Positions 28,682 through 32,000 are shown, counted from the first letter of the stretch. The stretch is 32,000 bases of DNA from Thermosulfurimonas dismutans (GCF_001652585.1 NZ_LWLG01000014.1:30001-62000), one strand, 5' to 3'. The notes: a model not told the origin generated them from the letters alone. A program made the numbers and translations.

Positions 28682-28711
28682 TTGCAAAGAATCTATTGAA
28701 TGTCATATTAT
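28682..28711 (+). promoter_or_regulatory. Candidate sigma70 promoter for galE-pglB
   Basis: TTGCAA (28682-28687), an 18-nt spacer, then TATTAT (28706-28711), about 150 nt upstream of the galE start. Confidence 0.35.
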
Positions 28712-28865
28712 ACCAGGGGGGAGGAAGCTCAAGGAATGGAGGAAAAAATCAGCACAAGATAATCCGGGAATCTGACAAACCCTTGTGGGGGCTTGCCGGG
28801 TAGCCGGGATCAGATGGAGGAAAATAAACGGGGTATATGGAGAGATTACCGGGGAGGAAATGGAA

Positions 28866-29843
28866 ATGCCGAAAATTTTCGTTACCGGTGGGGCAGGCTA
28901 CATAGGGTCGCACGTGGTAAAGCTACTTGGAGAGAGGGGCTATGAGGTTCTCACCTACGACAACCTCTCGACAGGCCACGAGTGGGCGATTCTTTATGGG
29001 AATCTGGTAAAGGCTGATCTGGGAGATAAAGAAACCCTGCGGAAGGTCTTTGAAGAATTCAAGCCGGATGCGGTGATACACTTTGCGGCTTATATAGTAG
29101 TCCCGGAAAGTGTAAAGGAGCCTCTTAAATATTATCGAAACAATGTGATCAACACTATCAATCTTTTGGAGGTTATGAGGGAGTTTGGAGTAAAGAGTTT
29201 TATCTTTTCTTCATCCGCAGCGGTTTACGGTATACCGAAGGAAATTCCCGTTCCTGAAACCGCTCCGCTCAATCCTATCAATCCCTACGGTGAAACCAAG
29301 GCCACGGTCGAGAGGATTCTGAGGGATCTGAGCAATTCGGGAACGGATTTCCACTATGTTTCTTTGAGATACTTCAATGTGGCCGGGGCTGATCCGGAGG
29401 GGAAGATAGGTTTCGCCTATCCCGATCCCACCCATCTAATCATAAGAGCGGTCAAAACCGCCAAAGGAGAGTTTGAGAGGCTCGAGATATACGGCACGGA
29501 CTATTCCACGCCGGACGGCACCTGTATTCGGGACTATATCCATGTTACGGATCTTGCGGAGGCTCACATACTGGCCCTGGAATACCTTCTTGATGGCGGA
29601 GAGAGCGAGATTCTGAACTGCGGATACGGCCACGGATACTCGGTAAGAGAGGTGGTTGAAACCGTGAAAAAGGTGACGGGGAAGGATTTTCCGGTAGTCG
29701 AGGCCCCGAGGCGGCCGGGAGATCCTCCGGTCCTGGTGGCCAAGGCCGATAAAATAAAAAGGGTTCTGGGGTGGCGACCCCGATATGATGACCTGGAGTT
29801 CATCATAAAGACCGCTTGGGATTGGGAGTGTAGAGGGCTTTAG
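28866..29843 (+). CDS. galE: UDP-glucose/UDP-GlcNAc 4-epimerase (GalE/Gne, short-chain dehydrogenase family)
   Basis: [18 protein letters not shown] (Rossmann GxxGxxG), SSSAAVYG and a YGETK catalytic YxxxK. The start at 28866 is chosen from the GGGGAGG RBS at 28851-28857 (the ATG at 28860 is also possible); the track's upstream extension has no support. Confidence 0.9.
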
Positions 29844-29844
29844 A

Positions 29845-31920
29845 TTGGATAAAAATAGGCTTTTGCTAGGGCTTAAATATTTTTTGCTCCTTTTGGTATT
29901 GGTAATAGGTCTTTACTTTCGGTTTGAGGACTTAGGGGGTTGGAAAGCTAGATATGCCTCTCTCTTTTATCTAGACGATCGGCCGCTTTTTACCAGTTAC
30001 GATGCCTTCTGGTTTGCGCGGCTAGCCAAGGATTATCAGGAAGGGCTCTATGATTTCGGCGATCGCGATCCCTTTAAATTCGTGCCGGACAACTATCTTA
30101 CCGAAAACTTCACCTATCCCCTTCTACCCATGGAAAGCTTTCTGGCTGCTGGAACCGCCAGACTTTTCGGGATCTCCATAGAGAAGTTTGCCCTCTATTT
30201 TACCCCTGTGGCCGCCGTCCTGTTTGCGATTCCGCTTTTTGTTTACTTAAACCGCCTGGGCTATCCCCTGGCCGGTCTTATGGGAGGGCTGGTGGGGGTC
30301 ACCAGTCTTATCTACCTCATCCGGACCTCCATTGTGCGGTTTGATACCGACAGCCTCAATCTCTTTTTCCCTTTTACGATAGCCTTTTTCCTGTGGAATT
30401 ACTTCCGGAGTTCAAGGCCTCTGTTCCAGGCCCTAGGAGCCTCTGTGGCTTCTTTGTTGTTTTACTGGTGGTATAGCAAAGCCCATCTGATATTGGTTCT
30501 TTATGCGGCCTTTTTGGTGCGTCTTTTTTGGGAGCGTGGGAAAAAGCTGACCTCTCTTGATTGGAAGGCCTTGGGTATTCTTATCCTTCCCCAGATCTGG
30601 TATCTGTGGCAGGCCCCTTGGGGGCTTTACAAGCAGATTATGGGGTATGTGATAAATATAACTTCTTCCGCTAGCCAACGTGGAATTTTTTCGGGTTTTC
30701 CCAATGTTTTGCAATCTATCTCCGAATTACAGAGCGCTCCCGGACTAAAGGGAGTGGCCTATTTTTGCCTCAACCACCAGTTTCTGCTGATCCTCGGACT
30801 TCTAGGAGCTTTCTTACTTTTCATAAAACGCTTCAGAGACCTACTCTTCCTTCTTCCTTATTTTGCTATAGGTCTTCTTACCTTCCGATCCGGGAATCGG
30901 TTTGCCATGTATCTGGCTCCTTTTATCGGAATGGGGTTGGGCTTTCTGCTGGAAGAGGTCCTGGCCCAGGGGAAGGGGTTAAGGCCTGATGGCTCCTTTG
31001 GGAATCGGCTCCTGAGGGAGGCGGTAGTCCTTGGTTTAGGGGTGCTTCTGGGAGCCGTGGTGGTTCTTTCTCAAAGCAAGAGCCTGGCCTACACAGCGGT
31101 TCCCAAGGTATTGGCTCCCCTGGCCCGGGACATGGAGGCCCTTCAAGAGAAGACCCCCCGAGAGGCTTGGATCTATACCTGGTGGGACCTGGGATACGCC
31201 TTTCAGTATCTTTCCAGACGGCCGACTTTTATAGACGGCGGTTCGCAGGGGACTCCTAAAACCTATTTTGTGGCCCTTTCTTTTACTACTCCTTCACAGG
31301 AAAAGGCCTACCATGTAACAGCCTTTCTCGCCGAAAAGGGGCTAAAGGGTCTGCGAGAGATCCTTGAGGAGTCCGGAAAGGATGCCGAGGAGGTGGTGGC
31401 CGACATCGTCTCCGGTAAATACGTCCAAAGGCTATCCCATCCGGTTTACTGGGTCTTCACTCCGGATCTACCGGCCAAGTTCGGCTGGATCCACTACTTC
31501 GGGAGCTGGGACTTTAAGAAAAAGAAGGGAACCTTCGGGTTTGTCAGGCCGGTTGAGGGCTGTCGACCGGCAAAGAAAAATCTTCTGGCCTGTCGAGGAA
31601 TGCTTCTGGATCTGGAAAAGGGCCTGGTAATCCAGGGCCTAAAGGCGTTGAAACTAAAGGAGATCGTGATCAAAAAAGGTGATGTCCTTTCAAGGAAAAG
31701 TTTGGCTTCGAAAGGCTTGATTTTAGAGATCGCTCAGGAAAAGGGCCGGACTTATTTTTATCTTGTGGATGAAAAGAGTTTTGTAAGCAACTTTAACCAA
31801 ATGTATATCTTGAGGCGTTACGATCCTCGCTATTTTCAATTGGTGTGGGACGACTTTCCTACCATGGTGGTCTATCGGGTCCGAGAAGATGATAATATAC
31901 TTGCCGGTCCGGATAGATAA
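29845..31920 (+). CDS. PglB/STT3-family oligosaccharyltransferase (N-linked protein glycosylation)
   Basis: 691 aa with a polytopic N-terminal ~430 aa and a soluble C-terminal domain. Catalytic-site layout: D53 (TSYDAFWFAR, nt 30001-30003), D167-T-D169 (RFDTDSL, nt 30343-30351), SISE294 (nt 30715-30726) and WWDLG at aa 446-450 (nt 31180-31194), followed by FIDGGSQGTPKTYFVALSF. This parallels Campylobacter PglB D56, D154/D156, E319 and WWDYG as I recall them. It has a TTG start 1 nt after the galE stop. Confidence 0.8.
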   Translation: MDKNRLLLGLKYFLLLLVLVIGLYFRFEDLGGWKARYASLFYLDDRPLFTSYDAFWFARLAKDYQEGLYDFGDRDPFKFVPDNYLTENFTYPLLPMESFLAAGTARLFGISIEKFALYFTPVAAVLFAIPLFVYLNRLGYPLAGLMGGLVGVTSLIYLIRTSIVRFDTDSLNLFFPFTIAFFLWNYFRSSRPLFQALGASVASLLFYWWYSKAHLILVLYAAFLVRLFWERGKKLTSLDWKALGILILPQIWYLWQAPWGLYKQIMGYVINITSSASQRGIFSGFPNVLQSISELQSAPGLKGVAYFCLNHQFLLILGLLGAFLLFIKRFRDLLFLLPYFAIGLLTFRSGNRFAMYLAPFIGMGLGFLLEEVLAQGKGLRPDGSFGNRLLREAVVLGLGVLLGAVVVLSQSKSLAYTAVPKVLAPLARDMEALQEKTPREAWIYTWWDLGYAFQYLSRRPTFIDGGSQGTPKTYFVALSFTTPSQEKAYHVTAFLAEKGLKGLREILEESGKDAEEVVADIVSGKYVQRLSHPVYWVFTPDLPAKFGWIHYFGSWDFKKKKGTFGFVRPVEGCRPAKKNLLACRGMLLDLEKGLVIQGLKALKLKEIVIKKGDVLSRKSLASKGLILEIAQEKGRTYFYLVDEKSFVSNFNQMYILRRYDPRYFQLVWDDFPTMVVYRVREDDNILAGPDR

Positions 31921-31938
31921 TTGTAATTTTACTTTCGA

Positions 31939-32000
31939 GCCCGGGTGGCGGAACTGGTAGACGCTGGGGACTTAAAATCCTCTGGGGTAACCCCCCGTGC
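31939..32000 (+). tRNA. tRNA-Leu (anticodon UAA), 3' part cut off by the window end
   Basis: GCCCGGG acceptor stem, TG, GCGGAACTGGTAGACGC D-arm, GGGGA-CTTAAAA-TCCTC anticodon arm (UAA at positions 34-36), and a long variable arm (GGGGTAACCCC) typical of class II Leu tRNAs. The T-arm is truncated. Confidence 0.85.

Follow-up and report, generated by a model that had tools for sequence, protein, structure and literature searches.

The 32,000-nucleotide stretch of DNA analyzed here (the window) contains a gene that is likely to encode a functional single-subunit oligosaccharyltransferase (OST) of the PglB branch, inherited vertically and relocated from an ancestral position at the fixABCX operon to a site behind a native galE, whose product would provide galactose-type substrates. 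The gene (GT-C/GT66) occupies positions 29,845 to 31,920 on the + strand; open reading frame calling placed its start at a TTG codon at 29,845 and its stop by 31,920, which corresponds to 691 amino acids. The protein passes the STT3/GT66 family models of Pfam, with 27.1 bits for PF02516 STT3 (GA 24.5) and 41.5 bits for PF21436 STT3-PglB_core (GA 23). When the family profile was searched against the PDB, it matched C. lari PglB over its full length (174 bits, E=5e-50). The AF2 model has a pLDDT of 93 and a pTM of 0.91, and in Foldseek it matched PglB 6GXC with a TM of 0.78 over approximately 700 residues, compared to 0.58 for STT3, 0.55 for AglB, 0.35 for ArnT and at most 0.36 for PMT. The family profile and these structural comparisons rule out an ArnT- or PMT-like glycosyltransferase. 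The predicted topology comprises a membrane domain with at least 13 helices and a periplasmic C-terminal domain. On the grounds of sequence and predicted structure the protein is a real PglB-branch member of the STT3 superfamily, which confirms its initial annotation as a bacterial N-oligosaccharyltransferase. With 85.4 bits it did not reach the cutoff of 1300 of NF050801, the NCBIfam equivalog for Campylobacter PglB. This indicates that the protein is no orthologue of the Campylobacter enzyme and may follow different substrate rules. In the domain search of relatives all five proteins matched STT3-PglB_core, whereas two of them (L001 and L083) reached STT3 only as "weak" or "faint" matches.

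The catalytic motifs were read as D53, D167-T-D169, S291-I-S-E294 and W446-W-D-L-G450. In the profile alignment with C. lari PglB the acidic residues D53, D167/D169 and E294 line up with D56, D154/D156 and E319, as had been anticipated; furthermore, R160 aligns with R147, R352 with R375, WWDLG with WWDYG and FIDGGSQG with LIDGGKH. The catalytic positions are invariant or nearly so in alignments of 35 and 49 family members. D53, D167/D169 and E294 are retained in 48 to 49 of the 49 proteins, and R160, R352, WWD and K545 are among the invariant positions of both alignments. Both tryptophans, the aspartate and the glycine of WWDxG occur in 49/49 members, while x is mostly tyrosine and is leucine in the window OST alone. 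The MI motif of PglB aligns to D-L-x-x-K-x-x-W-I in the window family. This corresponds to the family-invariant D541-x3-K545-x3-I549, which pairs with R-M-L-R-I-M-P-V-V of PglB, with the lysine on the isoleucine position; it appears DK-like, but its aspartate is shifted by one residue from the canonical DxxK. By analogy to PglB, D53, D167/D169 and E294 would bind the divalent metal and take part in amide activation, the pyrophosphate would be contacted by R352, and the pocket for the +2 serine or threonine would be formed by WWD (446-448) and the helix with the invariant K545/I549.

Compared to Campylobacter PglB, the OST shares the GT-C fold, the domain order and the single-subunit organization of the C. 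lari and C. jejuni structures (3RCE, 5OGL, 6GXC), as well as the equivalents of D56, R147, D154/D156, E319, R375, WWD and the C-terminal "NQMYILRxYD...". However, the identity is only about 18%. The EL5 motif TIXE of Campylobacter PglB is replaced by SISE, embedded in the family motif QSISELQ (Q290-SISE-L-Q296 in the window), and MxxI is replaced by D-x3-K-x3-I. No equivalent of C. lari R331, which reads an Asp/Glu at position -2, was found; the corresponding residue is Y306 in the OST and is variable and mostly non-basic, hydrophobic or aromatic, across the family. The PglBs of Desulfovibrio gigas, D. alaskensis and D. marinus (PMC4894442, PMC12229607) come, like the window, from sulfate- or sulfite-reducing bacteria, and both they and the OST show about 15-20% identity to C. 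jejuni PglB. They harbor an EL5 motif of the SVIE/SIIE type with a glutamine directly before it and another two residues after it (PMC12229607), which resembles Q290-SISE-L-Q296, a likeness that refers to the published motif description only. A conserved arginine reading position -2 is not evident in either, which makes a relaxed N-X-S/T sequon plausible. Due to this missing R331 equivalent and the Desulfovibrio-like Q-SISE-L-Q, the OST can probably dispense with an acidic residue at position -2, and its motifs suggest sequon rules that differ from those of Campylobacter. The OST differs from the Desulfovibrio enzymes in its thermophilic host. Signature peptides of the OST family matched 162 genome loci, and the best 80 of these included no Desulfovibrio, suggesting a separate subfamily. 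Eukaryotic STT3 and archaeal AglB share the SVSE-like EL5, WWDxG, the GT-C fold and, putatively, the DK-like lysine at the +2 pocket with the OST, but their kinship to it is far more distant (STT3A, 43 bits and TM 0.58; AglB, at most 28 bits and TM 0.55).

The OST is preceded by galE (28,860 to 29,843, + strand), which had been annotated as a GalE/Gne epimerase. This is supported by a match to TIGR01179 galE of 493 bits, above the equivalog cutoff of 262, and by full-length PDB matches of 338 bits to C. jejuni Gne (7K3P) and 230 bits to E. coli GalE; Gne is the second-best solved relative. The mechanical reading frame begins at a GTG at 28,785, and the second ATG at 28,866, with better spacing from GGAGG, may be the true start. 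Homologues with 76-91% identity place the protein in a thermophile-wide clade that represents a housekeeping-type gene in many thermophiles without an adjacent OST. C. jejuni Gne, which is encoded in the pgl locus and acts as a bifunctional UDP-Glc/GlcNAc 4-epimerase, aligns end-to-end with the window GalE and shares the catalytic Asn and the gatekeeper leucine of the C5 pocket (L294 in CjGne, GDPPVL in the window, G-D-P-x-V-L in common), while T122 of CjGne is a serine in the window GalE. As this leucine also occurs in group 1 enzymes restricted to UDP-Glc/Gal (PMC6668579), it does not on its own establish bifunctionality. For glycan synthesis, the Gne-like GalE would provide UDP-Gal and perhaps also UDP-GalNAc. 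The tight junction of the two genes was confirmed: the galE stop codon TAG (29,841-29,843) is followed by a single A and the OST TTG at 29,845. A Shine-Dalgarno-like GAGGG (29,833 to 29,837, + strand) was read 7 nt before this TTG. Its position within the 3' end of galE suggests that galE and the OST gene are probably co-transcribed and translationally coupled. A candidate sigma-70-like promoter, TTGCAA-18-TATTAT, which matches by consensus, lies about 150 nt upstream of galE (28,682 to 28,711, + strand); such sites are not more numerous in the window than expected from shuffled sequence.

The locus is flanked by features that had led to its initial annotation as a horizontally acquired, stripped-down island. 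A tRNA-Leu(UAA) gene does begin 18 nt after the OST stop codon. Its first 62 nt (31,939 to 32,000, + strand) share 79-84% identity with tRNA-Leu(taa) genes called by ARAGORN in related loci, and the acceptor, D and anticodon arms as well as the UAA anticodon are readable; since the gene runs past the end of the window, neither ARAGORN nor Rfam called it. The 1.4 kb of transposase debris and GC-rich repeats described upstream stood up in part. The repeats were recovered as a nested hairpin of GGGCGGG/CCCGCCC units just past the stop codon of an SPFH gene (27,476 to 27,551, + strand), supported by the inverted repeats I1 and I9 and by an RNA fold of -61.9 kcal/mol (z=-5.9). Six of the 12 GGGCGGG heptamers of the window are located within 27,488-27,815, and four of them build the hairpin, which is probably a terminator or REP-like element. 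The debris was reduced to one weak, frameshifted remnant of an IS3/IS66-type transposase OrfA (about 27,868 to 28,267, - strand), consisting of an HTH ("...ARKYGIVEQIIYRWRQK") and a coiled-coil segment in another frame. It matched Pfam HTH_Tnp_1 with E=8e-5 and 23.2 bits (GA 24.1) and the NCBIfam models for IS66 TnpA-like (E=1.4e-7) and IS3 (E=1.3e-5) proteins, both below the cutoffs. In tblastn against plasmids it matched only transposases, with E~5e-3 and across the frameshift; neither a DDE catalytic domain nor convincing terminal repeats were found with it. A doubtful C-terminal remnant of an IS256/mutator-type transposase (28,272 to 28,457, + strand; Pfam Transposase_mut E=0.03 only) had no tblastn match in plasmids and is unsupported.

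The tRNA gene on one side and the IS remnant on the other would fit a recently acquired minimal galE-OST island. Further points in its favor are that none of 85 related OST loci and four galE loci shows the order galE-OST-tRNA, and that the GalE clade bears signs of inter-phylum exchange, with 85-87% identity to Aquifex and Hydrogenivirga proteins and, in locus L090, a galE of 46% GC inside flanks of 19-38% GC. However, the codon usage of the OST does not differ from the rest of the window (z=0.2), that of galE deviates only with z=1.9, and the segment at 28-32 kb has a tetranucleotide distance lower than the average of the window (z about -0.6), so that the region is native in composition compared to its flanks. 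The closest OST homologues belong to Thermosulfurimonas/Thermodesulfatator-type relatives of the same family (49-73% identity). A neighbor-joining tree consistent with vertical descent places the window OST as sister of the Thermosulfurimonas-like clade, basal to it and on a long branch. OST identity is just 58-59% (by differing measures) within the Thermosulfurimonas-like genus, so the 50-56% of the window OST represents ordinary divergence. The gene was present in all sampled genomes of Thermosulfurimonas, Thermodesulfatator-MAG, Caldimicrobium and Thermodesulfobacterium. The neighborhood of galE is the same in T. marina, and neither an integrase nor a repeat of the 5' part of the tRNA was found within the 32-kb window. 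Moreover, a tRNA-Leu(UAA) gene lies about 3.8 kb upstream of the OST in nine Caldimicrobium-type loci, indicating that this linkage is not specific to an island. The recent-island model is thus already disfavored and very unlikely to be correct. The OST is likely to be an old, vertically inherited gene of the family and no recent import. The composition outlier of the window is a HisK/PhnD-like region at 15.9-18.1 kb.

Synteny around the OST is not conserved, but the pattern suggests a rearrangement within the genome. In 24 of 78 related loci, in clades bracketing the window lineage, the OST is the last gene of an ETF fixABCX operon with fixX directly upstream; in relatives with gene calls, fixX extends 23-26 nt into the OST gene. 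This 3' end is the putative ancestral site in Thermodesulfobacteriaceae. Within the 32-kb window no fixX, fixC or cupin gene was found. The galE block, on the other hand, is common to the window and T. marina (AAA_5 85%, hyp600/hyp609 67%, FMN_red 72%, DUF362 66%), and an OST did not follow galE in any of the relatives' galE loci examined. Because galE resides in this shared ancestral neighborhood, the OST would be the gene that moved, to 1 nt behind galE. The upstream IS remnant is a possible trace of this rearrangement; as it is weak, and galE lies between it and the OST, such a role is speculative. Alternatively, the galE-linked gene could be a duplicate specialized for a Gal/GalNAc glycan or other acceptors, with the fixABCX-linked OST retained. 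Tandem paralogues of the same family occur in Deferribacterales (L070), some Campylobacterota possess two PglB copies (PMC4894442), and the unique leucine in WWDxG and the long basal branch would be compatible with a specialized copy. Yet the 32-kb window contains no second OST, all catalytic positions are intact with no visible relaxation of constraint, and a partial relative (P0002) with an OST 73% identical to that of the window gives the lineage its own clade, consistent with orthology. A paralogue is therefore unlikely, and relocation of the inherited gene is the preferred explanation.

As annotated initially, the host is a sulfite reducer carrying dsrAB, and no glycosyltransferase, flippase or bacillosamine gene adjoins the OST or occurs elsewhere in the 32-kb window, so the lipid-linked donor must originate elsewhere. 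Genes building and flipping this glycan would be located at other sites of the genome, as in relatives. An OST standing alone is the norm in Thermodesulfobacteriaceae, while pgl-like clusters surround it only in Aquificota and Deferribacterota members: in Desulfurobacteriaceae it adjoins PglC-, PglE- and PglF-like genes, a GT4 and galE, and in Deferribacterales PglC- and PglF-like genes. Campylobacter pglB likewise lies in a pgl cluster, unlike the window gene. The OSTs of Deferribacter spp. and Aquificota belong to the same HMM-defined family with 32-44% identity and the same invariant motifs, including K545, but the window clade is uncoupled from their PglC- and PglF-like glycan genes. The reported distribution of PglB-type OSTs in Campylobacterota and a few Desulfovibrio is incomplete, since homologues from Aquificae and Deferribacter have been published (PMC4894442, PMC6025236). 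Passages in these papers describe tests of the Deferribacter desulfuricans and Hydrogenivirga homologues in E. coli, and one in PMC6025236, citing Mills 2016, reports the Deferribacter OTase as functional.

The predicted enzyme would be an inner-membrane protein whose C-terminal domain lies in the periplasm. It would take a preassembled glycan from its undecaprenyl-pyrophosphate carrier and attach it to the asparagine of N-X-S/T in exported proteins. Campylobacter PglB also releases free oligosaccharides, and the OST could mainly hydrolyze lipid-linked glycan to free periplasmic oligosaccharides or use a non-protein acceptor in vivo, with the fixABCX coupling reflecting another role. This coupling in 24 loci is not explained by N-glycosylation, and no glycan assembly genes adjoin the OST in Thermodesulfobacteriaceae. 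But the WWD motif and the putative DK-like +2 pocket, which serve sequon recognition, are invariant, same-family OSTs of other phyla lie in pgl-like clusters, and the Deferribacter enzyme transfers glycan to protein in the account given in PMC6025236. A main activity other than protein N-glycosylation is therefore highly improbable. No experimental report on N-glycoproteins of any Thermodesulfobacteriaceae was found in the literature searched. As the window shows no genes for the lipid-linked glycan, an active N-glycosylation pathway in the host is a prediction.

In a broader and rather doubtful reading, Thermodesulfobacteriaceae and allied thermophiles would carry a distinct thermostable subclass of N-OSTs, which combines PglB architecture with eukaryote- or Desulfovibrio-like motifs (Q-SISE-L-Q, the DK-like lysine and no arginine for position -2), uses minimal N-X-S/T sequons and has an ancestral link to fixABCX that was rewired to galE in the window genome. 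If so, the tie between the ETF genes fixABCX and the OST may reflect a link of periplasmic glycosylation with energy metabolism, and the rewiring to galE would point to a glycan containing Gal or GalNAc.

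Two closely spaced genes on the forward strand and the start of a third occupy the final 3.3 kb of the window. The epimerase gene galE is located at 28860-29843 (+); its mechanical ORF extends from a GTG at 28785, and the alignments of homologues begin at the MEMPKIF start. Its stop codon TAG (29841-29843) is followed by a single base and then by the TTG start of the oligosaccharyltransferase (OST) gene, which comprises 691 codons (29845-31920, +). A GAGGG motif lies 7 nt 5' of this TTG, within galE. The 5' 62 nt of a tRNA-Leu(UAA) gene (31939-32000, +), reading GCCCGGGTGGCGGAACTGGTAGACGC...CTTAAAA..., start 18 nt past the OST stop, and no terminator-like site was found between the two. 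Neither ARAGORN nor Rfam called this tRNA in the window, because the window end cuts the gene. However, the 62 nt share 79-84% identity with full tRNA-Leu(UAA) genes called by ARAGORN in related loci. Based on the ORF coordinates and this comparison, the galE-OST-tRNA layout described in the initial annotation is real.

The OST was also analyzed for its relationship to known oligosaccharyltransferases. Both Pfam models for the STT3 superfamily recognize it above threshold, and PglB of Campylobacter lari is its sole strong solved relative in phmmer. In this alignment D53, R160, D167/D169 and R352 correspond to D56, R147, D154/D156 and R375 of C. lari PglB, E294 of SISE corresponds to E319 of TIME, WWDLGY to WWDYGY and FIDGGSQ to LIDGGKH. 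The catalytic positions are invariant or deviate in at most one of 49 full-length family members, which are labelled Thermodesulfobacteriota, Aquificota, Deferribacterota, Desulfurella, Acidobacteria and Phycisphaerae. A profile built from 35 members of the family aligns with PglB over its entire length (E=5e-50, 174 bits), compared with 43 bits for STT3A and at most 28 for AglB, which rules out an AglB- or STT3-like origin. The AlphaFold2 model (pLDDT 93, pTM 0.91) is most similar to PglB (TM 0.78), followed by STT3 (~0.58), AglB (~0.55) and DPY19 (0.47). ArnT (0.35) and PMT (at most 0.36) score lowest, and an ArnT- or PMT-like identity is ruled out by fold and profile scores. The proposed assignment as a PglB-type OST thus holds: the acidic residues align with those of PglB and no affinity to ArnT or PMT appears, since the catalytic positions are conserved and PglB is the best match by both profile and fold. 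Against the NCBIfam PglB equivalog the protein reaches 85 bits at a cutoff of 1300. It is a member of the PglB branch without being orthologous to the Campylobacter enzyme; the T. dismutans protein is already named 'Oligosaccharyltransferase PglB' by NCBI.

Departures from PglB in the motifs that recognize the sequon were read from the profile-to-PglB alignment and from column counts. The EL5 motif of the OST is Q290-S-I-S-E-L-Q296. It can be set beside the SVIE/SIIE of Desulfovibrio PglBs, which resembles the eukaryotic SVXE and carries a Gln just before and another two residues after (PMC12229607). R331 of PglB, the reader of the acidic residue at -2, is replaced by Y306, in a column that is variable and mostly non-basic in the family. 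In the +2 pocket, the MxxI of PglB is replaced by D541-L-P-A-K545-F-G-W-I549. K545, which occupies the position of the PglB Ile, is invariant (49/49 members), and this arrangement is DK-like, as in STT3 and AglB, but unlike Campylobacter PglB. From these three departures in the alignment we infer that the OST would recognize N-X-S/T without requiring an acidic residue at -2.

The initial annotation regarded galE-OST as a horizontally acquired island, and composition, phylogeny and distribution each speak against this. The expected atypical composition was not found: codon usage of the OST relative to the rest of the window is within resampling noise (z=0.2), and at 28-32 kb the tetranucleotide distance is lower than the average of the window. 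The value for galE (z=1.9) is lower than those of the SPFH gene (2.7) and dsrA (5.5). The latter, located with dsrB (dissimilatory sulfite reductase) at 1629-4238, shows the strong bias expected of a highly expressed gene. The compositional outlier of the window is a different pair at 15919-18122 (-), encoding a histidine kinase (HAMP-HisKA-HATPase) and a PhnD-like periplasmic binding protein (42.5% GC versus ~53% elsewhere; codon z=4.4 and 3.5). The closest OST homologue is a partial sequence from a short contig (73% identity), followed by the OSTs of Thermosulfurimonas/Thermodesulfatator-type genomes (49-56%), to whose clade the window OST is sister in a neighbour-joining tree. All matches in the genome scan show at most 56% identity, and all relatives from the metagenome scan at most 36%. 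The OSTs of T. marina and Thermosulfurimonas sp. F29 themselves share only 58-59% by different measures, and the divergence of the window OST is therefore ordinary. The family profile recovered 1,264 representative clusters at E<=1e-30, and an OST is present in every sampled relative. In a search for att-like repeats, no exact repeat of at least 14 nt of the tRNA-Leu 5' part was detected in the window.

The transposase debris reported upstream of galE (27.4-28.86 kb) could be confirmed in part. A frameshifted IS3/IS66-type OrfA remnant at 27868-28267 (-) has weak but consistent support, whereas an IS256-type remnant at 28272-28457 is unsupported (Pfam E=0.03 only, no tblastn match), and further six-frame fragments of 27.4-28.8 kb match no family. 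The GC-rich repeats noted there are present as a cluster of GGGCGGG/CCCGCCC heptamers, with 6 of the 12 in the window lying within 330 nt. They form a stable nested hairpin after the SPFH gene (27476-27551, +; -61.9 kcal/mol, z=-5.9), possibly a terminator or a REP-like element. A promoter-like site at 28682-28711 (+) is a consensus match only.

Gene order in relatives was analyzed by neighbour clustering of 81 loci, which yielded the recurrent order fixA-fixB-fixC-fixX-OST-cupin-argB-valS. In targeted counts, fixX lies directly 5' of the OST in 24 of 78 informative loci, where the OST forms the 3' end of an ETF-type (electron-transfer flavoprotein) fixABCX operon, and a small cupin gene lies directly 3' in 32 of 76. 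The loci listed with fixABCX-OST are L001-L006, L012, L018, L022, L023, L027, L030-L032, L034, L036, L041, L047, L056, L065, L068 and L082-L085. In each of the five relatives for which gene calls exist, fixX ends 23-26 nt inside the OST gene. These loci come from the Thermosulfurimonas-like and Caldimicrobium clades, on either side of the lineage of the window. By parsimony, fixX-OST is thus ancestral and the arrangement in the window, where no fixX, fixC or cupin gene was found, is derived. Orthologues of the DUF362, AAA_5, 609-aa hypothetical and FMN_red genes of the window (66-85% identity) are found at most 7 kb from galE in T. marina, and an OST follows galE in none of four galE loci examined in relatives, including one with a 91%-identical GalE. 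Therefore, the OST is probably the gene that moved, and a probable relocation of an ancestral OST next to a native galE replaces the account of a horizontally acquired island. The partial relative with 73% identity has a convergent MFS transporter gene downstream and no tRNA. In nine Caldimicrobium-type loci (L022, L027, L030, L031, L034, L036, L056, L065, L068) a tRNA-Leu(UAA) gene is located on the same strand ~3.8 kb upstream of the OST, just before fixABCX. The OST-tRNA-Leu order of the window could be a local permutation of this tRNA-Leu-fixABCX-OST order. The 609-aa protein (18758-20587, -), conserved beside the AAA_5 ATPase in T. marina (67% identity), is one of two large ORFs without a Pfam match; the other encodes 482 aa (14358-15806, +).

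The galE product scores 493 bits against the GalE equivalog model. Its second-best solved relative is 7K3P (338 bits), which is C. jejuni Gne, a Leu-bearing group 2 enzyme; E. coli GalE reaches ~230. The gatekeeper Leu is common to the window GalE (GDPPVL) and Gne (GDPSVL), where L294 corresponds to E. coli Y299. Since this Leu also occurs in UDP-Glc/Gal-only enzymes (PMC6668579), activity on GlcNAc/GalNAc is plausible only. The window GalE shares 87% identity with that of Hydrogenivirga, 85% with Aquifex, 83% with Thermosulfurimonas sp. F29 and 76% with T. marina. This GalE type (loci L086-L088, L090) is thus closer between Thermodesulfobacteriota and Aquificota than to T. marina. At L090, a 91%-identical galE of 46% GC is embedded in flanks of 19-38% GC, with the N-terminus of an IS5-like transposase upstream. 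The cross-phylum identity and this GC contrast suggest that galE is mobile between phyla among thermophiles.

The OSTs of Thermodesulfobacteriaceae generally do not adjoin glycan-assembly genes. Being 'stripped-down' is hence no special trait of this locus, and because OST genes usually stand alone in this bacterial family, a nearby tRNA and IS scar are insufficient to call horizontal transfer. In Desulfurobacteriaceae (L019), the cluster reads galE ... GT4, two DegT/PglE-like aminotransferases, a PglC-like Bac_transf, a PglF-like dehydratase and the OST. A Deferribacterales MAG (L070:7933-11956) harbors a tandem pair of OST paralogues (665 and 672 aa), with PglC-like and PglF-like genes on either side. 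These clusters in other phyla tie the OST family to bacillosamine-type lipid-linked glycans, and the corresponding genes are likely encoded elsewhere in the T. dismutans genome. A flippase-like gene (Polysacc_synt) occurs ~5 kb downstream of the OST in Thermosulfurimonas sp. F29. There (L082:10382-15042) the OST is followed by a toxin-antitoxin island (ParE, PIN/MazE, DUF4258/DUF2283 and others), past which the flippase-like gene and a GFO/hexapeptide-transferase gene are located. Elsewhere in the window, nucleotide-sugar-related functions are limited to overlapping APH-family kinase and NTP_transferase genes (4598-6224, -), which are similar to an AmgK/MurU-type pair for sugar-1-phosphate salvage.

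Since 2010, lists of PglB homologues from outside Campylobacterota have included Deltaproteobacteria and Aquificae, and a Hydrogenivirga enzyme was part of a functional screen (PMC4894442). The OTases of Deferribacter desulfuricans and vent Epsilonproteobacteria are described as functional in a statement of PMC6025236 that cites Mills 2016. No literature linking PglB to Thermodesulfobacteria, or on N-glycoproteins in this group, was found. Overall, the observation and the enzyme identification stand, while the horizontal island gives way to a probable internal relocation in view of native composition, same-family phylogeny, distribution and the gene order of relatives. The analysis adds a single-subunit OST of the PglB branch that is well supported, probably thermostable and encoded by a thermophilic sulfite reducer, together with a corrected picture of its locus. 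The predicted relaxed sequon is relevant to bacterial glycoengineering, where Desulfovibrio enzymes are already exploited as a source of this property, and is of moderate interest, as is the thermostability. The fixABCX-OST operon, which recurs in relatives and lies outside the window, is the more puzzling observation: it couples an N-glycosylation enzyme to an electron-transfer flavoprotein system.
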